Source: a virus. Taken from it: DNA of 45,655 nucleotides. Each line of letters opens with the position of its first letter. The first letter of the stretch is position 1. A program made the position numbers and the translations under genes. The DNA is taken from IMG/VR virus record IMGVR_UViG_3300033179_000004, positions 1-45,655 of that record, one strand, 5' to 3'. A model generated the notes under the pieces. That model made no database searches, was not told where the DNA came from, and was given only the letters and a program-made list of their open reading frames with translations. Of this stretch, positions 3,250-22,728 are shown in pieces.

Positions 3250-3444
3250 TTATGCCGGGCTACTCTGCGAAAACAGGTAGTGCCTGATGATCCGCTGCAT
3301 CATCGATGCGGCGGCGGCGATTTCGTAAGAGTGCTGATCGTTGGAGCGCCTATCGGCCAAGCAAGCGATCTGATCCAAGCCGCGATGAATGCTTATAAGA
3401 TCGTCTTTTCTGATGGTGACTATCGGGGCAGCTTCCGGTCTCAT
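3250..3444 (-). CDS. Hypothetical small protein (64 aa)
   Basis: ATG at 3444 is preceded by AGGGAGGA. The longer 123-aa ORF-track version would read through the 3476-3503 hairpin. Confidence 0.4.
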   Translation of the reverse strand: MRPEAAPIVTIRKDDLISIHRGLDQIACLADRRSNDQHSYEIAAAASMMQRIIRHYLFSQSSPA

Positions 3445-7721: not shown

Positions 7722-7796
7722 TGGTGCCCGGTAGCGGGATTGAACCGCTGACCTCGTCATTACCAATGACGCGCACTACCACTGTGCTAACCGGGC
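7722..7796 (-). tRNA. tRNA-Thr (anticodon GGT), full length with encoded CCA
   Basis: Hand-folded cloverleaf: acceptor GCCCGGT/ACCGGGC, D stem GCAC/GTGC, anticodon stem CGTCA/TGACG with loop TTGGTAA, T stem AGCGG/CCGCT with loop TTCAATC. Confidence 0.9.
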
Positions 7797-15662: not shown

Positions 15663-15917
15663 TCAGATGCGCAAATCTTCCGGCTTGGTTTTGGTTTTGA
15701 TCATCAGCGAAACCAGGTAGCCGACCGACATGGGGACAACGTTTTCCCCGCTGATCCAAGAGCGCACCGCGCGACCCCCGACCCCGATCAAGCGGGCAAA
15801 GGCCGATTGACTGATTTCGATGTCCGCCAAGGCTATCGCGAGTTCGTCACCGGACATCGGTTCGGCAGTCTCCGCAAAGCGCATTGGCTCGCGTTCTTTT
15901 TTCTTTGGCTTTTTCAT
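15663..15917 (-). CDS. XRE-like HTH protein (84 aa)
   Basis: [24 protein letters not shown] is an HTH motif. ATG at 15917 forms an ATGA overlap with the recombinase stop. Confidence 0.6.
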
Positions 15918-16561
15918 GCTGTCCTCAATCGCTCGCAAAGCCGCCTGACGGTTTGGGACTGCCACTTGCGGCCTTGAGGCGTGGCAATGCCGCGTTCATT
16001 TAAAATGAAAGCAATGCGCCGCGACGGTAGGTTAATCAGCGGCCAAACGATGTCGCGAAGGCGTTCGGCGAACTCACCGGCAAATTGAGCGTTTACCTTG
16101 GCCTGTCTCGCGTTGCCAAGCACAACGCCGCGCGCCTTCGCGGCAGCCAGGGCAAGCTTGGTCCGCTCGCCGATCATGCGGCGCTCTTTCTCGGCGACGG
16201 CAGCATAAATATGCAACATGAACGGATCGACGTTCGCGCCCAACTCGCAGACGATGAACGGCACGCGGTTAGACATCAGGCCAGCGATAAACGCGACATC
16301 GCGCGACAGCCGGTCAAGCTTATGAATGATGACCGGGCATTTCAGTTTCTTGGCGGCATCCAATGCAGCGGCCAATTGCGGGCGACGCTCTAGCGCGTCG
16401 TTACCCTTGCCGGTTTCGATCTCAGAGAACGCGGAATGCACCGCATAGCCTTCGACCGCGCAAAAGGCATCGATGGCGGTTTGTTGCGCATCAAGGCCCA
16501 AAGGCGCTGGCGCTCCCTTGCGGGCCTTGGAAAGTCTGCGGTAGGCAATGGCTGGTTTCAT
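15914..16561 (-). CDS. Serine recombinase (resolvase/invertase family)
   Basis: AYRRLSK catalytic Ser context, plus HKLDRLSRD and [12 protein letters not shown] motifs. C-terminal [21 protein letters not shown]. Confidence 0.8.
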
Positions 16562-16584
16562 GGTTTCCCCTTGCTGGTAGGCTG

Positions 16585-16613
16585 TTCTAGGCCATTAAAG
16601 CCTAGGCGGTCAA
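16585..16613 (-). promoter_or_regulatory. Putative promoter TTGACC-N17-CTAGAA for the recombinase operon
   Basis: Read on the minus strand, directly after the upstream terminator. Confidence 0.4.
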
Positions 16614-16621
16614 GGCGCGAC

Positions 16622-16660
16622 AGAAAAGAAAAACCCCGCACTAGGCGGGGCTTTGATTTT
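16622..16660. terminator. Terminator after the ardA mini-operon
   Basis: The minus strand reads GCCCCGC-CTAGT-GCGGGG followed by TTTTTCTTTT. Confidence 0.7.
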
Positions 16661-16760
16661 AGAGCAAGGCGCGGATGACTGCCCCGCCATATAACACCGT
16701 GGCGCAAAACAGGGTTAGCACCGTGGCGGCTAACCAGTCTGCGGCTTGATCGTCATACAT
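16659..16760 (-). CDS. Mini-ORF, single-TM peptide (33 aa) coupled to ardA
   Basis: ATGTATGA overlap with the ardA stop. MYDDQAADWLAATVLTLFCATVLYGGAVIRALL. Confidence 0.35.
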   Translation of the reverse strand: MYDDQAADWLAATVLTLFCATVLYGGAVIRALL

Positions 16761-17256
16761 TGTGGAACGCCCACACGTCGCCATCGTGACGAACGAAAGA
16801 CATATCGCCGCCGCAGCGCGCATCGCGCGCATAGCTTTCATAGTCGATGTAGTAGCGCAGCGCTTCCGGAATGCTATCGAGCAAGCCGCTATCTTCCCAA
16901 TAGGACGCGGCCCAATCGGCCTCTGTGTCATACTTGCCGTAGAAGGCGTCACGCGCCTGATCAATGGTCGCGTCGTCCGTCACATGATCCCGATATACCG
17001 CCAGTAATTCGCGGTCCTCTTCGTCGAGTTCGAGCCAGTCCCACAATTCGGCGGGAACGTCGCTCTCGTTATAGAAGGCTTTCGGGAAACCCTCATAATC
17101 TTGGAACATCAGTTCCGGGTCAGCCTCATTGGCGTGAAGCTTCGCGCAAGCTTCAAGGAAGCTTTCGCGGTCACCGAAATCCTCAAGATCAAGCCAAGCC
17201 CCGGCAATCGATCCGGAATTATATTTGGCGTAGGTGCCAACATAAACGCGAGCCAT
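16753..17256 (-). CDS. ardA: ArdA-family antirestriction protein
   Basis: RVYVGTYAKYNSGSIAGAWLDL at the N-terminus, an acidic middle region, and YIDYESYARDA...VWAFHN at the C-terminus are typical of ArdA. ATG at 17256 lies after GCAAGGGGAA. Confidence 0.8.
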   Translation of the reverse strand: MARVYVGTYAKYNSGSIAGAWLDLEDFGDRESFLEACAKLHANEADPELMFQDYEGFPKAFYNESDVPAELWDWLELDEEDRELLAVYRDHVTDDATIDQARDAFYGKYDTEADWAASYWEDSGLLDSIPEALRYYIDYESYARDARCGGDMSFVRHDGDVWAFHNV

Positions 17257-17329
17257 TTCAGTTCCCCTTGCAGCGCTTGATTGCGCCAAATCACCATAGG
17301 CGTTTAAGCCCTAAGCCCGCAAGTGAAAT

Positions 17330-17390
17330 CGCAATAAAAACGACAGCCCCCGGTTTATTACGGGGAAAAACCCCGGTCGTAACTATTACG
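17330..17390. promoter_or_regulatory. Divergent control region with operator-like sites O7 (17330-17342), a half-site (17356-17361) and O3 (17378-17390)
   Basis: CGCAATAAAAACG, ATTACG and CGTAACTATTACG. A weak TTGCGG-N17-CTATGG promoter candidate lies on the minus strand at 17294-17322. Confidence 0.4.
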
Positions 17391-17432
17391 CAAGCCTAGG
17401 CAAGCCTACCCCTGGCCCTGGGAGGTAGGCCT

Positions 17433-18062
17433 ATGCGCGTTTTGATAGGCTGCGAGCGCTTTGGCAGGGTTCGGCAGGCATTCCGCGCGTTAGGTCATGA
17501 CGCATGGTCCTGCGACCTCGTTCCGGCGCTCGACGGCAGCCCGCACCATCTGCAATGCGACGTTCTGACGGTGCTAGGGCAGGGTTGGGATTTGGCGATA
17601 TTCCATCCCGATTGCACGTATCTGTGCAACTCAGGCGCAAAGCATCTTTATCGGGGAATGAACAAGGCCAACGGGCCGGACCCCAAGCGCTGGCGCGACA
17701 TGCGCAAGGGCGCGCGGTTTTTTAAAACCTTGTTAGACTGCGATATTCCAAAGGTAGCGGTTGAAAATCCCATCATGTTGGGATGTGCCAAGGCGATTAT
17801 TGGCCGCGAGCAAAGCCAGATCATTCAGCCTTGGATGTTTGGCGACCCCGAAACCAAAGCGACCTGCCTATGGTTGCGCGGCCTGCCGCTGTTGATCCCG
17901 GTCTATCCGCAATGGGATGATTGCAGGCGGGCGCACAATCTGCCGCGCGGTGCCAAGCCCAAGCCGGTGGTTCATTTCGCCTCACCTGGTCCCGACCGGC
18001 GCAACATTCGCAGCAAAACCTATCCGGGGATCGCGCAAGCGTTCACCCAATGGGCCGCATAA
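17433..18062 (+). CDS. Short C5-cytosine-DNA-methyltransferase-like protein (orphan)
   Basis: VLIGCERFGRV (motif I-like), FHPDCTYL (PC-motif variant with a D-C dipeptide) and VAVENP (ENV-like). No cognate nuclease is adjacent. Confidence 0.45.
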   Translation: MRVLIGCERFGRVRQAFRALGHDAWSCDLVPALDGSPHHLQCDVLTVLGQGWDLAIFHPDCTYLCNSGAKHLYRGMNKANGPDPKRWRDMRKGARFFKTLLDCDIPKVAVENPIMLGCAKAIIGREQSQIIQPWMFGDPETKATCLWLRGLPLLIPVYPQWDDCRRAHNLPRGAKPKPVVHFASPGPDRRNIRSKTYPGIAQAFTQWAA

Positions 18063-18065
18063 AAA

Positions 18066-18087
18066 AACCAGCCCGCAGGCTGGTTTT
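18066..18087. terminator. Bidirectional terminator between the MTase-like gene and the early operon
   Basis: AACCAGCC-CGCA-GGCTGGTT, flanked by an A-run and a T-run. Confidence 0.7.
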
Positions 18088-18114
18088 GAAATCTGAATTA
18101 CAGGCCACAGCCTG

Positions 18115-18714
18115 TTAATTGTTCTTTCGGGAAGTGTTAGCCGGGTGGGTTTGGCCTTCAAAGTCGATATGGGCAATGTTGCAATCGTGCCGCCTGCACC
18201 AGATTTGCAGGCCGCGCGGCGTCCATCCGACCTCAAGCGCGGCAAAGTCGCGCGGCGAAATATCGGCGGGCCTTTCGTCTAGGCATAGCGCGCAATGCAG
18301 ATAGGCGGCAATTTCGTTCGCGTTGCCGACATGCGGCGGTTTTGAAGTTGGCTCAAGAAACTTTCCGCAATCGGCACAGACGCCGCGCCCGGTGTCGCGA
18401 TGGTGGCAGGCCTCTTGCCGCTCTTTCACCGTCGCTTCAATGAACGCTAAGACCTCGTTCCAATCGTCCGTAGCGAGCGAGGGGCCGGACGTTTCTACCC
18501 CGTGATCCTGCGAGTTGACGATAAAGCGCGGGTGGGTGTCGCCGTATTCGCGCTTGGTAGGGTCCGCATAATCAACCCAAATGGTTAGGCCGTATTGATC
18601 GGATGTGAAGCTAGGGCAGGCGTCATTGTGCCAAGAGGTATCAACGAAACCCTTCGGAATTGCTGGCATGTCCTGCGGTCGAAAGTCTGGAAATTCGGCG
18701 AGGTATTCGCCCAT
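18115..18714 (-). CDS. Hypothetical Cys-rich protein (199 aa)
   Basis: The C-terminal half has CxxC/CxxC-like spacing (CADCG...CALC...C..HDC). It is the last gene of the early operon. Confidence 0.55.
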   Translation of the reverse strand: MGEYLAEFPDFRPQDMPAIPKGFVDTSWHNDACPSFTSDQYGLTIWVDYADPTKREYGDTHPRFIVNSQDHGVETSGPSLATDDWNEVLAFIEATVKERQEACHHRDTGRGVCADCGKFLEPTSKPPHVGNANEIAAYLHCALCLDERPADISPRDFAALEVGWTPRGLQIWCRRHDCNIAHIDFEGQTHPANTSRKNN

Positions 18715-18799
18715 TAGATTTGCTCCCTTGCTGGCATCTGTAACGGCCTAAGCCGGGTGATGGTTTCCCATGCCCGGCAAGGTCACGATGTCCGAAAGA
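18715..18799 (-). repeat. Intercistronic structured element, copy A
   Basis: Minus strand: GCCGGG-C-ATGG-GAAA-CCAT-CA-CCCGGC, then TTAGGCCGTTA and the SD CAAGGGAG. The outer stem is swapped relative to copies B-D (compensatory change). Confidence 0.7.
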
Positions 18800-19252
18800 T
18801 TACGCCGCAAGCGGCAAAACGTCATCCTCTATCAATTCTTCCACCGGTTCGGCGGGTGTCCAGTCCCAATGCGGAATTGCAATGGTGGCAATAAGCTTGC
18901 CGCGCTGCGAACTCCATCGCGTGCTGGTATTTTCAAAGAAATGCACTTCGCGAGCGCGACGTTCCCGCTTGCCGTTGACGTGCAAGGTATCGAACGCAAC
19001 AGAGGCAATCGCGTCATCGGGCAATGCCACGCCATCGCGCGCGGCCAACCAGCGAGCATAGAGCGCGGCGCGGCGCGTGTTATAGTCCAACGGGCTTTCC
19101 GCAGACTTGAGGCCATTGGTTGGCTTGCGGCTGATGCGCTGGCGCTTGCCATCGGCAATCCAGACCTTGCGCGGCATTGGGCCGTGAACGGGATTGCGCA
19201 CATCACCGCACGCGCGTTCGTTGTTAGAGAGAATGCCAATCACTTTCCACAT
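18800..19252 (-). CDS. Hypothetical protein (150 aa)
   Basis: ATG lies after GCAAGGGGAACAGCAA. Confidence 0.55.
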   Translation of the reverse strand: MWKVIGILSNNERACGDVRNPVHGPMPRKVWIADGKRQRISRKPTNGLKSAESPLDYNTRRAALYARWLAARDGVALPDDAIASVAFDTLHVNGKRERRAREVHFFENTSTRWSSQRGKLIATIAIPHWDWTPAEPVEELIEDDVLPLAA

Positions 19253-19343
19253 TTGCTGTTCCCCTTGCGAAGCGGAATGCCTCTAACGGCCTAAGCCCGG
19301 TAAAGCTTGCGCTTGCCGGGCATAGAACCAATGTCGGGAGGGA
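19253..19343 (-). repeat. Intercistronic structured element, copy B
   Basis: Minus strand: GCCCGG-C-AAGC-GCAA-GCTT-TA-CCGGGC, then TTAGGCCGTTAG and GCAAGGGGAA. Confidence 0.7.
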
Positions 19344-19868
19344 TCAGGCGTTAGCGCGGCGATCTGCGGCCATTCGCTCGTATGATGCATCCTTGGGAAC
19401 GCCAAAACACATCCGCGCGGAATTGTCGGGACCGATGGATGTTTCAAGTTCAAAGGTCAGGTATTTGTTAGCGCGATTGACGCGCAACAAAAGCGCATCA
19501 GCATGCAAGCCCGCATCAGCGACATAACCGTTAGTGAAGTGATCGGGCGCGAAGCAAAACGCGATTTCATCGCCCGCGCGAAGCGACTTGATCACGGTCG
19601 ATGCGTGGGTGTGCTGATTGTGATAGAGGTAAACCAACTCGAAGCACCGCGCCGCACCGCTTGCCAGCGCTTCGCGCCCGCGCGTGGTCTCTAGTCTCAC
19701 TTCGCAATTTTCCAGCTTGTATTCCTGATCTGTCTCAAATGGCGCGGCGTTATATGGCTTGCGCTTGATCAGGACCACGCGCCCGGTGGGGTTGCGCTCG
19801 CCTAGGTGAATGCAGATTTGATCTGCTTTGCGGAATGCTGCGATGTCGGTTTTGGTCAAGATTGCCAT
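19344..19868 (-). CDS. Hypothetical protein (174 aa)
   Basis: ATG at 19868 lies after GCAAGGGGAAACCAA. The 229-aa ORF-track version reads through repeat copy C. Confidence 0.55.
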   Translation of the reverse strand: MAILTKTDIAAFRKADQICIHLGERNPTGRVVLIKRKPYNAAPFETDQEYKLENCEVRLETTRGREALASGAARCFELVYLYHNQHTHASTVIKSLRAGDEIAFCFAPDHFTNGYVADAGLHADALLLRVNRANKYLTFELETSIGPDNSARMCFGVPKDASYERMAADRRANA

Positions 19869-19959
19869 TTGGTTTCCCCTTGCAAGCGCGGGATGCGCTC
19901 CTAACGGCCTAAGCCCGGTAACCTTTCGGTGCCGGGCATTGGTCGCGATGTGGTGAGGG
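19869..19959 (-). repeat. Intercistronic structured element, copy C
   Basis: Minus strand: CCCTCACCACATCG..., then GCCCGG-C-ACC-GAAA-GGT-TA-CCGGGC, then TTAGGCCGTTAG and GCAAGGGGAA. Confidence 0.7.
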
Positions 19960-20037
19960 TTAGAGGCTGAAATAAATGGTTTGGGTGATGGCAACGATTG
20001 CGAGGCCGATTGCCGCGACCATGATGGGATCAAGCAT
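19960..20037 (-). CDS. Mini-ORF, hydrophobic peptide (25 aa) coupled to the upstream gene
   Basis: ATGCTTGA overlap with the stop of the 20030..20347 CDS. MLDPIMVAAIGLAIVAITQTIYFSL. Confidence 0.3.
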   Translation of the reverse strand: MLDPIMVAAIGLAIVAITQTIYFSL

Positions 20038-20347
20038 TGGTTATCGTGATCTTGCCGGGCGAATAGACCGCGACAACGTGCGAGCCTGAAAACGTCGCCG
20101 CGACTTTCGCGCCAGTCACATCAATGATGGGCTTGGTATCCTTGCCCGATACGGTGCCGCGCGCGTCACGCGAAAGCTTGTCGAATTGCGCCGCGCTGAT
20201 CAGCGTCAAAACGAGGCTTTGCTTGTGCCATTCACGGGCAAAGAACTTGCCAACGGTGAAACCGTTATCGGCAAGCCTTGCGCCTTCAATCCAAATGCGG
20301 GTTCGCTCGCCCGCGCGCGTGGTGCCGAGTTTCGTTGTGATCTGCAT
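20030..20347 (-). CDS. Hypothetical protein (105 aa)
   Basis: ATG lies after GGCAAGGGGAACGCA. Confidence 0.55.
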   Translation of the reverse strand: MQITTKLGTTRAGERTRIWIEGARLADNGFTVGKFFAREWHKQSLVLTLISAAQFDKLSRDARGTVSGKDTKPIIDVTGAKVAATFSGSHVVAVYSPGKITITNA

Positions 20348-20437
20348 TGCGTTCCCCTTGCCGAAGCGGTGTTGCTTCTAATGCCTTAAGCCCGGTGATG
20401 CTTTCGCATGCCGGGCATAAGAGCGATGTGGAGAGGG
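20348..20437 (-). repeat. Intercistronic structured element, copy D (with a boxA-like CGCTCTTA)
   Basis: Minus strand: CCCTCTCCACATCGCTCTTAT, then GCCCGG-C-ATGC-GAAA-GCAT-CA-CCGGGC, then TTAAGGCATTAG. CGCTCTTA corresponds to plus-strand 20418-20425. Confidence 0.7.
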
Positions 20438-20680
20438 TTAGCGGCGCGCGAGCCATCGCTGCATTGAGGCCGCGTCATCGGGATGATAGCCGTTCTTGAA
20501 AACGTCCATCGCGGTGTGGCGACCTTCCGTCTCCACCATGCGCTCTGCGTTGCGCACCTGACCGGCGTGATCCTCGGAGAGCATGCACATCACCATCGGG
20601 TGACGGTTGACGTGGGCTACCAGCTTGCGGGCATTGACGAGCGAATTGCAGGCGATAAAGGCCTCTAGAAGTTTGTTCAT
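20438..20680 (-). CDS. Hypothetical protein (80 aa), first gene of the early accessory operon
   Basis: ATG lies after GCAAGGGGAACTACC. Confidence 0.55.
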   Translation of the reverse strand: MNKLLEAFIACNSLVNARKLVAHVNRHPMVMCMLSEDHAGQVRNAERMVETEGRHTAMDVFKNGYHPDDAASMQRWLARR

Positions 20681-20715
20681 GGTAGTTCCCCTTGCTGGCG
20701 TGATCGCCTGTCCGC

Positions 20716-20744
20716 ATCTAGGGCCTTATCACCTACCCTGTCAA
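20716..20744 (-). promoter_or_regulatory. Putative early leftward promoter TTGACA-N17-CTAGAT
   Basis: Perfect -35 hexamer on the minus strand. Operator-like O4, CGCAATAAATACG, lies at 20752-20764 just upstream of it. Confidence 0.45.
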
Positions 20745-20784
20745 TGGGGTTCGCAATAAATACGCAAAGAAAATTGGAGAGCAA

Positions 20785-20955
20785 ATGAAACGAGTATTTA
20801 AGTCACCGGGCAAGCGGACCGCTTTCTTCCGCGCGCTGATGCGCAGGACAGACAAGCGGGTCAGGGCAACGCGAATGTTGCGGGCATTGGACTATCAGCG
20901 GATAGCGGCTGGCCCATTGGCAAGCCAACCTAACGAGCGGCAGGGGCAGGGCTAG
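20785..20955 (+). CDS. Small Arg-rich protein (56 aa)
   Basis: GGAGA Shine-Dalgarno. MKRVFKSPGKRTAFFRALMRRTDKRVRATRMLRAL... The ORF is below the ORF-track cutoff. Confidence 0.4.
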   Translation: MKRVFKSPGKRTAFFRALMRRTDKRVRATRMLRALDYQRIAAGPLASQPNERQGQG

Positions 20956-22313: not shown

Positions 22314-22393
22314 TCGATTTGCCGTTTAGTGCGGTCCTTTTGATCCTCGCCCTTTGGATCGCGATAGCCGCTTCGATGTGGACGTTTCGGTGA
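22310..22393 (+). CDS. Mini-ORF, single-TM peptide (27 aa)
   Basis: MIDLPFSAVLLILALWIAIAASMWTFR. Its stop overlaps the GTG start of the SLOG gene as GTGA. Confidence 0.3.
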   Translation: MIDLPFSAVLLILALWIAIAASMWTFR

Positions 22394-22728
22394 GGGTCAT
22401 CGTCTGCGGTGGCCGCGCCTTTGACGATTACGAGCGCCTTGAACGCGAACTGGATCAGCTTCATGAGCGCTACCGTTTCAGCGTCGTGATCCACGGTGCC
22501 GCCTACGGTGCGGATCGCTTCGCGGAGAAGTGGGCCAAGTCGCGCCAGATCGAAATCGAAAGCGTCCCTGCAAACTGGAAGCGGTTCGGCAAGCAGGCCG
22601 GGCCGTTCCGCAACGCGGAAATGCTCCGACGCAAGCCCGAACTGGTGATTGCGTTCCCCGGTGGCAGGGGCACCGCCGACATGGTCGAGAAAGCACTCGC
22701 CGCCCACATCAAAGTGATCAGGTTTTAA
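22390..22728 (+). CDS. SLOG-superfamily DUF2493 protein
   Basis: (M)RVIVCGGRAFDDYE...VVIHGAAYGADRFAEKWA...AGPFRNAEML...ELVIAFPGGRGTADMV matches the DUF2493 pattern end to end. Confidence 0.7.
   Translation: MRVIVCGGRAFDDYERLERELDQLHERYRFSVVIHGAAYGADRFAEKWAKSRQIEIESVPANWKRFGKQAGPFRNAEMLRRKPELVIAFPGGRGTADMVEKALAAHIKVIRF

Follow-up and report, generated by a model that had tools for sequence, protein, structure and literature searches.

We analyzed a stretch of viral DNA, IMG/VR record IMGVR_UViG_3300033179_000004 (positions 1 to 45,655; 'the window' denotes this whole stretch of 45,655 nucleotides), with a focus on positions 16,622 to 20,784, in which an earlier reading of the letters alone (the original prediction) had proposed an early island of anti-defense genes anchored by the antirestriction gene ardA. 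The region encodes five proteins of 80, 105, 174, 150 and 199 amino acids (aa) in one operon (p80, p105, p174, p150 and p199), ArdA and, on the opposite strand, a methyltransferase-like protein; every one of the four gaps within the operon holds a copy of the same RNA module (85–95 nucleotides (nt) in the window; ~85–110 nt overall), and this module is our main subject. Contigs and loci used for comparison are given by labels (e.g., L014, P0006).

An accessory island with three transcription units

The five open reading frames (ORFs) of the operon, all on the minus strand, have a GC content at third codon positions (GC3) of 0.62–0.75, compared with ~0.41–0.42 in two overlapping alternative ORFs; each lies behind a strong Shine-Dalgarno sequence (SD), and each is called identically on two independent metagenome contigs (L001 and L002). 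The island is organized in three minus-strand units with related sigma-70-type promoters, that is, promoters P1, P2 and P3 (P2 is putative). The unit of promoter P1 contains, in this order, p80, p105, a 20-aa ORF, p174, p150 and p199; the unit of promoter P2 contains ardA and the gene for a 33-aa hydrophobic peptide; the unit of promoter P3 contains a resolvase gene and a helix-turn-helix (HTH) gene. Between the first two units, the other strand encodes the methyltransferase-like protein.

Promoter P1 (20716–20744, minus strand) consists of TTGACA at 20744–20739, a 17-nt spacer and CTAGAT at 20721–20716; it is not picked up by an E. coli-type promoter scan, and the same architecture precedes the island in at least nine related loci. 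Promoter P3 (TTGACC-N17-CTAGAA; 16588–16613, minus strand) drives the resolvase and HTH genes, marks the right-hand boundary of the island and has an equivalent in the related phage L014. The putative promoter P2 for ardA (TTGCGG-N17-CTATGG, with TTGCG-N4-TAGG-N9-CCTA; 17294–17322, minus strand) is weaker and is proposed by analogy with promoters P1 and P3; a terminator-like hairpin (17366–17347, minus strand) precedes it. A bidirectional intrinsic terminator (~18062–18092, both strands; AAAACCAGCCTGCGGGCTGGTTTTTTT on the minus strand) ends both the operon and the convergent methyltransferase-like gene, and terminator-type Rfam matches below threshold are found at 18059–18102; a second intrinsic terminator (16630–16654, minus strand), with a 10-bp stem followed by a T run, ends the unit of ardA and the 33-aa peptide gene. 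Several elements of the original prediction are confirmed here: the five genes form an operon for which no family is recognized, the near-consensus promoter TTGACA-N17-CTAGAT is present at 20744–20716, and the hydrophobic mini-ORFs ascribed to two of the genes are found at 20022–19960 and 16760–16659. The promoter was also said to drive the island genes in general; this holds for the five-gene operon but not for ardA, which is outside the operon and has its own weaker (putative) promoter and its own terminator.

The motif TTGAC-N4-TAGG-N9-CCTA occurs in the whole window only in promoters P1 and P3 (0.01 occurrences expected). The motif within the island promoters (20744–20719 and 16613–16588; weaker at 17322–17294), often GCCTAGGC ... 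GCCTA, is also kept in related phages and has the appearance of a shared operator, for which p105 and the 84-aa HTH protein are candidate binders.

A tblastn search with the window proteins identified a recurring layout among related loci, with a divergent terS on one side, the resolvase and HTH genes on the other side and different cargo between them; judged from this gene order, terS and resolvase + HTH enclose a hypervariable accessory slot in a family of related phages, and the region is this slot. The dominant cluster of cargo ORFs in the slot encodes ArdC (290–296 aa, with ArdcN and MPTase-PolyVal domains; 10 related loci); the slot in the window holds ArdA where its relatives commonly hold ArdC. 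The conserved flank (15663–16561) is formed by the serine recombinase gene (15914–16561, minus strand; PF00239, E = 3.7e-20) and the gene for the 84-aa HTH protein (15663–15917, minus strand), and is syntenic with seven other loci.

An RNA module in the gaps between cistrons

Read from the stop codon of the upstream gene, the module runs through 7–8 nt, mostly rich in C and U, the conserved ACAUCG and a first hairpin (hairpin P1), which is long and irregular and has an internal loop, C/YA, and a tetraloop of the GNRA type. An unpaired linker (RUUA) joins it to a second hairpin (hairpin P2), which is variable; the SD (AAGGGGAA) and the start codon come last. In the window, the four copies are on the minus strand at 20348–20437 (copy 1; core 20374–20431; 82.6 bits; fold energy z = -4.8), 19869–19959 (copy 2; core 19897–19953; 63.7 bits; the inner stem lacks 1 bp relative to the other copies), 19253–19343 (copy 3; core 19279–19336; 77.4 bits) and 18715–18799 (copy 4; core 18736–18793; 62.5 bits). 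In copy 4, the second hairpin is reduced and the outer stem has the compensatory swap GCCGGG/CCCGGC. A 17-nt core of the module occurs four times in the window, in this operon only (0.08 occurrences expected).

The related phage L014 contains three copies with different stem sequences; together with the four copies in the window these were used to build a covariance model from seven sequences (the first locus set contained 12 copies). For a wider search we scanned IMG/VR and GTDB with a degenerate structured pattern and then applied the covariance model. With this model, 48 copies (39 distinct) were identified in 24 loci, always between cistrons and always in the orientation of the genes. The GTDB pattern scan gave five matches, one of which was confirmed by the model (L053, an alphaproteobacterial metagenome-assembled genome); an exact 17-mer scan of IMG/VR gave one chance match, inside a coding gene, and literature string searches for the conserved sequence of the module returned unrelated primer matches only.

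The proposed pairs are formed in 93.4% of the cells of the alignment, compared with 24–53% when the 3′ partners are slid by 1–3 columns; 11 of the 16 pairs have changed on both sides, and none of 500 shuffles reaches the observed covariation score. The loops of hairpin P1 are almost all GNRA (GAAA, GCAA and GUAA), G-U pairs are frequent, and the sequence of the outer stem differs between copies of one genome. In hairpin P2, GRAGS is conserved as the 5′ strand, and the stem again shows compensatory changes. Among the unpaired nucleotides, ACAUC (5′), the C/YA internal loop and RUUA (3′) are conserved. Because of the G-U pairs, the GNRA loops and the 2-nt difference in copy 2 that would break a reading frame, the module acts as RNA of the sense strand and not as DNA or as a peptide.

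Each copy is located between a stop codon and an SD, and none follows a promoter. In 31 of 38 copies the module starts 7–8 nt past the upstream stop codon, and in two of the remaining copies (L040 and L032) an alternative stop triplet sits at exactly this distance; the distance from the module end to the very strong and uniform SD is 20–40 nt. Transcripts from promoters P1 and P2 and from related promoters begin instead with a small hairpin followed by the SD, that is, without a module.

Searches of Rfam 15 at the gathering threshold identified only transfer RNA (tRNA) in the window and 17 module-bearing loci, and no family reached its gathering score on L014, L020, L023 or L024. At E values up to 10, no Rfam family (twister, twister-sister, pistol, hatchet and HDV-like included) matched the module in positions 16500–20800 of the window; type II hammerheads (RF02276) were not detected in the window at the gathering threshold nor, in 16500–20800, at E values up to 10. 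Judged from these comparisons, the module is an uncatalogued and well-supported structured RNA family (39 distinct copies with strong covariation), and it is the most unusual feature of the locus, one that the original prediction had overlooked.

Three other identities were considered and rejected. A conserved 10-codon leader ORF (MPGxxKxxxx) can be read over the hairpin; however, copy 2 is 2 nt shorter, copy 4 begins with TTG, and the stems change by compensation. Copy 1 contains a boxA-like string (CGCUCUUA) and a GNRA hairpin as in a lambda-type nut site; the string forms the lower stem of hairpin P1, where it covaries and is not kept in sequence. A promoter of the extracytoplasmic function type (ECF/EcfG; GGAAC-N16-CGTT) was dismissed as its '-35' sequence is not conserved.

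In related phages, the gaps next to homologues of p174 are occupied in several ways. L023 and L043 have ArdC, a module, the p174 homologue and another module, one after the other; in L029 and L030 the order is ArdC, Hammerhead_II, p174 homologue, Hammerhead_II, followed by two hammerheads between downstream ORFs, so that each of these loci contains four type II hammerheads (Rfam 43.6–49.7 bits; cutoff 37). In L016–L019 the gaps flanking the p174 homologue contain an intrinsic terminator followed by a CTTGAC-N17-CTAAAT promoter. The module, the hammerheads and the terminator-promoter pairs are, therefore, positionally equivalent: a hammerhead, a terminator and promoter, or a module at the homologous ArdC-p174 junction points to a shared need, that is, an independent mRNA for each accessory cistron.

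Further variants were observed at the same positions. The phages L016–L019, which encode the closest relatives of p174 (74–77% identity), place a terminator + promoter unit around each gene in a moron-like layout, and the promoter hardly changes between gaps (CTTGACAT-N-GTACTAAATA). In L021, L022, L025 and L026, a GAAAC...CUGAUGA hammerhead core is found in the gaps flanking the p174 homologue; the sequence in L021 (84–144) has the full core and scores 26.5 bits, below the gathering cutoff of 37, and those in L022, L025 and L026 have no Rfam match at E values up to 0.1. Since none of the four reaches the gathering score, scans at Rfam thresholds would miss these hammerhead-like sequences. In L028, the p174 homologue is flanked on both sides (~2660–2740 and ~3250–3350) by the repeat GGGGGCGC-AAUGGU-GCGCCYCC-AUGCGAGCGAAAGGCUUGUGG. 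This repeat differs from both the hammerheads and the GNRA module, matches nothing in Rfam at E values up to 0.1 and may represent a fourth type of intercistronic element.

The cargo genes and their phage

The ORF that encodes ArdA extends from 16753 to 17289 (minus strand); the start at 17256, which gives a 167-aa protein (16753–17256), is most likely the real one, favored by the SD GCAAGGGGAAC at 17271–17261 and by independent gene calls on identical contigs. The protein matches PF07275 (E = 1.2e-31; 110.9 bits, cutoff 27), with residues 15–168 aligned to positions 1–151 of the 155 in the profile, and PHROG 2059 'anti-restriction protein' (E = 8e-31). It contains 39 Asp + Glu and 13 Lys + Arg residues (net charge -26; pI 4.1), an acidity like that of DNA mimics. 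Members of the ArdA family mimic DNA and block type I restriction; from this established family knowledge, the protein in the window is, as judged by homology, a DNA-mimic anti-restriction protein, and the original prediction was right to recognize it.

The stop codon of ardA overlaps the start of the gene for the 33-aa hydrophobic peptide (16659–16760, minus strand) as ATGTATGA. The peptide is conserved with 67–74% identity in two other phage contigs, L032 (9545–9643) and L048 (3022–3120); because the copy in L048 overlaps a different upstream gene by ATGA, the 33-aa ORF is a gene in its own right. In these phages the island closes with a conserved gene for a single-helix hydrophobic peptide of 32–33 aa, whatever gene precedes it; the terminator and the resolvase promoter come next.

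The gene for p174 (19344–19868, minus strand) encodes a rare, well conserved family with 24 homologues among 5.8 billion clustered proteins. Its structural model has a predicted local distance difference test (pLDDT) score of 92.2; a comparison with PDB folds gave no match (best E = 0.06, template modeling (TM) score <0.3), and a comparison with BFVD gave one, an uncharacterized Brevibacillus phage protein (E = 2e-10, TM 0.61). The genome neighborhoods of the homologues are as follows. In P0006, ArdA lies two genes ahead of the homologue and ArdC four genes behind it; in the related phage P0017/L014, it directly precedes ArdC; in P0012 (a D5-primase element), it lies several genes upstream of ArdC; in P0020, it is found in a T4-like phage region that also contains a Lar restriction-alleviation gene and an S-adenosylmethionine (SAM) lyase; and in L029, it directly follows ArdC. 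In four unrelated contexts, then, the family is associated with ArdA, ArdC, Lar or SAM lyase, and by this repeated association alone p174 is the strongest candidate for a new anti-restriction or anti-defense protein in the operon.

The protein p105 (20030–20347, minus strand) is basic (pI 10.3) and belongs to a family of 37 members. Its AlphaFold2 model (pLDDT 94.3) is a tandem swapped-hairpin β-barrel of the MraZ/AbrB type; in Foldseek searches the top 12 PDB matches are all MraZ (probability 0.96–1.0, TM 0.51–0.59). We found no Pfam or NCBIfam match (MraZ and AbrB models included), and sequence and profile searches of the PDB were empty. From the predicted fold, p105 is probably a DNA-binding regulator: it shares the tandem swapped-hairpin barrel and the basic character of the MraZ/AbrB-SpoVT factors; it differs from them in the lack of a sequence-level Pfam match, its nearest relatives being a phage family and the N-terminus of an IncA/C plasmid Dcm. 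The full length of p105 corresponds to residues 5–99 of this 541-aa Dcm (31% identity), ahead of its PF00145 domain, so the IncA/C-type Dcm methylase, whose N-terminal domain is unannotated, appears, if the fold prediction holds, to be fused to a DNA-binding module. Dcm proteins with such N-terminal ~100 residues are encoded by L011 (4989–6614; E. coli IncA plasmid pEco15-1) and L012 (Aeromonas salmonicida plasmid 4). We also considered p105 as an antitoxin for p174; this was rejected, as the two genes are not found together in other loci. The 20-aa hydrophobic mini-ORF (19960–20022, minus strand; MVAAIGLAIVAITQTIYFSL; grand average of hydropathy 1.9), for which no homologue was found, starts 7 nt after the stop codon of p105, and module copy 2 keeps the canonical 7-nt distance to the stop codon of the mini-ORF and not to that of p105.

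None of the five operon ORFs has a match in Pfam, NCBIfam, PHROGs or PADLOC. The first gene of the operon, p80 (20438–20680, minus strand; GC3 0.75; SD GCAAGGGGAAC), has a weak 46% match of its N-terminus to 52-aa ORFs in L035 and L041 and no informative relatives. An exhaustive HMMER search with p150 (18800–19252, minus strand) yielded 104 cluster representatives, without annotation, and no relation to Pfam or to the PDB (a PDB profile search included); one homologue is present in the module-bearing locus L037. The acidic protein p199 (18115–18714, minus strand; net charge -13; 8 Cys) has two domains, an N-terminal domain (approximately residues 1–98) and a Cys-rich C-terminal domain (approximately residues 121–197), that occur separately elsewhere. 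The former is found in Rhodobacter/Roseobacter phages (RcPescado gp97; L054, 2980–3411) and in rhizobial megaplasmids (the loci compared include L003–L010), the latter in several IMG/VR contigs; p199 is a fusion of the two modules.

The methyltransferase-like ORF (17433–18062, plus strand; 209 aa; GC3 0.69), which is a real gene, matches PHROG 757 over residues 1–206 (E = 3.3e-47), where the label 'DNA methyltransferase' is an annotation. The family has at least 7,890 homologues, with members of ~200 aa, and occurs in 159 GenBank phage records, most of which label it DNA (cytosine) methyltransferase. In an alignment of 21 sequences, His, the first Pro and Cys of the consensus HPPCT are invariant; the protein in the window has HPDCT (H58-P59-D60-C61), that is, Asp precedes the Cys. 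The protein has no Pfam match at E values up to 1 (the C5-methyltransferase family PF00145 included), no NCBIfam match, and no match in the PDB with the single sequence or with the 21-sequence profile; an hhalign comparison of the family with a weak 3-sequence Dcm alignment gave an uninformative probability of 4.5%. With motif positions read by eye, a canonical target-recognition domain between motifs VIII and IX would not fit into the ~200 aa of the family.

Several lines of evidence place the island in its phage. Because two independent metagenome contigs, 45,558 and 45,669 bp long, encode an identical p199, the window is an essentially complete phage-sized genome; its gene content (a tyrosine integrase, a Rad52-type recombinase, a DnaA_C-domain protein, terS and structural genes) identifies a temperate tailed phage. 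A megablast search of the region against GenBank phages gave no match. Three indirect clues concern the host: the GC content of the window is ~58%, a homologue of p105 is found in the genome of Bradyrhizobium retamae, and the island promoters fit the CTTGAC-N17-CTATAT type, which we take to be the alphaproteobacterial consensus. On sequence grounds, then, this is probably a ~45.6-kb temperate soil phage of a rhizobial/alphaproteobacterial host. A tRNA gene (7725–7796, minus strand; Rfam 69.4 bits) is located in the left arm of the genome. A 124-aa ORF (22354–22728, plus strand) overlaps a 112-aa product that has a precomputed YAcAr (PF10686) match on identical contigs; its location between terS and the structural genes is unusual for such a domain.

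The other proposals of the original prediction fared unevenly. The ORF described as a short C5-methyltransferase-like orphan is real, as is its D-C motif, and it matches PHROG 757 'DNA methyltransferase'; homology to C5-methyltransferases was not recovered by Pfam, PDB profiles or hhalign, and a gene from a very large phage family already annotated as DNA methyltransferase is not the special orphan that was envisaged. The proposed very early expression has as its only basis a strong, conserved promoter and a location beside terS. The anti-defense interpretation is partly supported: it is well supported for the island as a whole, as known anti-defense genes occupy this slot both here (ArdA) and in its relatives (ArdC, 10 loci), and it is plausible for p174. 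It is weakened for p105, whose MraZ fold is the 'mundane regulatory role' named beforehand as a refuting outcome, and p80, p150 and p199 have no informative relatives from which to judge it. The premise that anti-defense genes cluster around ArdA and methylases is supported: the clustering of ArdA, orphan methyltransferases and uncharacterized genes is a documented pattern (PMC11541004).

Proposed function of the module and comparison with known systems

Our joint best explanation, to which we assign a probability of about one half, is that the region is a variable accessory island in which the module serves as an RNA-processing element that separates the cistrons. The module would make neighboring cistrons independent at the RNA level. 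The cut in the transcript would fall within the RUUA linker or close to it; the upstream mRNA would be left with the stable hairpin P1 protecting its 3′ end, and the downstream mRNA would be left starting with hairpin P2 followed by the SD, like the leaders after the island promoters. The enzyme would most likely be a host endonuclease such as RNase E or, within hairpin P1, RNase III. RNase E prefers R-N-cut-W-U-U; the GCAUU sequence would fit this preference, and hairpin P1 would be long enough for RNase III.

Several points weigh against this explanation. We infer the cleavage, its site and its enzyme, whereas the sequences themselves show the structure, its restriction to the sense strand, its strictly intercistronic placement and the positional equivalence. 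The ~15 conserved unpaired nucleotides exceed the generic need of RNase E or RNase III, which points to a specific tertiary fold or a specific protein partner. In window copies 1–3, the SD pairs with a CCCUC located after the stop codon; SD sequestration as a general mechanism was rejected, such pairing being present in 11 of 38 copies overall. Hammerheads and modules were not seen together in any contig, so their equivalence holds between lineages and not within an operon. For the island, it is association alone that suggests an anti-defense role of the operon proteins, none of them matches a characterized anti-defense or defense family (Pfam, PHROGs, NCBIfam and PADLOC), and p105, from its predicted fold, looks like a regulator.

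Other functions of the module were considered. The uncleaved module could be a translational device, either a coupling or insulating element that places the terminating ribosome relative to hairpin P1 or an operator through which a phage or host RNA-binding protein would set how each cassette is translated; the fixed spacing from the stop codon, the position ahead of a very strong and uniform SD, the SD pairing in window copies 1–3 and the conserved single-stranded motifs that could bind a protein are all compatible with this. We nevertheless consider it unlikely, since the pairing is confined to a minority of copies and since the hammerheads and terminator-promoter pairs of related operons separate transcripts physically, without coupling translation. 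Somewhat more doubtful still is that the module represents an undescribed class of small self-cleaving ribozyme that has replaced type II hammerheads between the same island genes. The module lies where the Hammerhead_II motifs lie between the same two genes, has no Rfam family match and has many conserved unpaired nucleotides at a helix junction and an internal loop, and a neighborhood shared with hammerheads was the clue that led to twister (PMC6765202); however, known small ribozymes are more intricate than two simple hairpins in which we detected no pseudoknot or multi-helix junction and, by inspection, no covarying long-range pairing, and a protein-dependent site explains the same data. 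That the repeats act as DNA boundaries of cassettes, that is, as sites of the serine recombinase or as substrates of homologous recombination like the promoter-early stem-loops (PeSLs) of T4-type phages, with RNA structure incidental, is very improbable. The cargo between modules is highly variable among related phages, the copies of one genome share identical 17-nt stretches, a resolvase always adjoins, and the T4-type PeSLs provide a precedent (PMC2839356, PMC4122927); however, the compensatory changes keep structure and not sequence, the G-U pairs are strand-specific, the loops are GNRA, the half-sites differ within one genome, and the module, unlike a PeSL, has no promoter. Shuffling of cassettes through the module repeats may occur as a by-product, as with the T4 PeSLs.

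The content of the island can also be read differently: the five operon genes may be ordinary lysogeny or accessory genes (regulators, superinfection exclusion, host takeover), with ArdA a mere neighbor in mixed cargo. We regard this as a possibility to be taken seriously, although as the lesser one. The transcription-factor fold of p105, the absence of matches of the operon proteins to anti-defense or defense families, the two small hydrophobic peptides, which are more typical of membrane-acting moron genes, and the separate transcription unit of ardA all speak for it; the recurrence of p174 with ArdA, ArdC, Lar or SAM lyase in four unrelated backbones and the presence of ArdC in the slot of 10 relatives speak against it.

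The module might be usable as a natural genetic insulator; if it is a ribozyme, phage islands would be a natural system showing that ribozymes cut operons of accessory genes into single-gene mRNAs. The ArdC-p174 junction, solved in three ways in different phages, bears on why self-cleaving ribozymes cluster around phage genes, an open question (PMC6765202). The slot between terS and the resolvase is a defined hotspot in which to mine anti-restriction and anti-defense genes of rhizobial-type phages, and p174, whose confidently predicted fold has no match in the PDB and whose homologues recur beside ArdA and ArdC, is a concrete candidate to begin with.

The module and the island can be compared with four known systems. 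The RNase III sites of the early operon of phage T7, which includes the anti-restriction gene 0.3/ocr, and the hairpins and RNase E sites of the Rhodobacter puf operon are intercistronic elements at which processing leaves stabilizing 3′ hairpins. Like these, the module places a long irregular hairpin between the cistrons of a polycistronic mRNA; it differs in its far greater amount of conserved unpaired sequence, its obligatory GNRA loop and its fixed spacing from the stop codon.

The PeSL cassettes of T4-type phages (PMC2839356, PMC4122927) are likewise repeated stem-loop motifs that bracket novel ORFs with varying cargo in hyperplastic regions. A PeSL unites an early promoter and a stem-loop of the terminator type and works through DNA recombination, whereas the module is strictly intra-operonic and has covariation of the RNA type; the modules contain no -35/-10 elements, and the would-be -35 varies with the compensatory changes in the stem.

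The island as a whole resembles the anti-defense islands in the leading regions of plasmids (Samuel and Burstein, 2024; PMC11541004) in its ArdA or ArdC, its methyltransferase-like gene, its small uncharacterized genes and its strong dedicated promoters; it differs in that it occupies a slot beside terS in a temperate phage, has no single-stranded DNA promoters and carries the methyltransferase-like gene in the opposite orientation.

The closest parallel in position is provided by the type II hammerheads of prophages (Perreault et al., 2011; PMC3088659; RF02276). Clustered hammerheads flank single prophage genes, including ardA (in a triple arrangement of Agrobacterium tumefaciens), and cleave both in vitro and in vivo (PMC3088659). 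Like the module, they are structured RNAs located ~10 nt past a stop codon and tens of nucleotides before a start codon, they are repeated between the small accessory genes of alphaproteobacterial prophages, where they flank anti-restriction genes, and they occupy the identical ArdC-p174 junctions. The module differs in its architecture: all four copies in the window lack the CUGANGA/GAAA/GUH core, and two hairpins take the place of the three-way junction.

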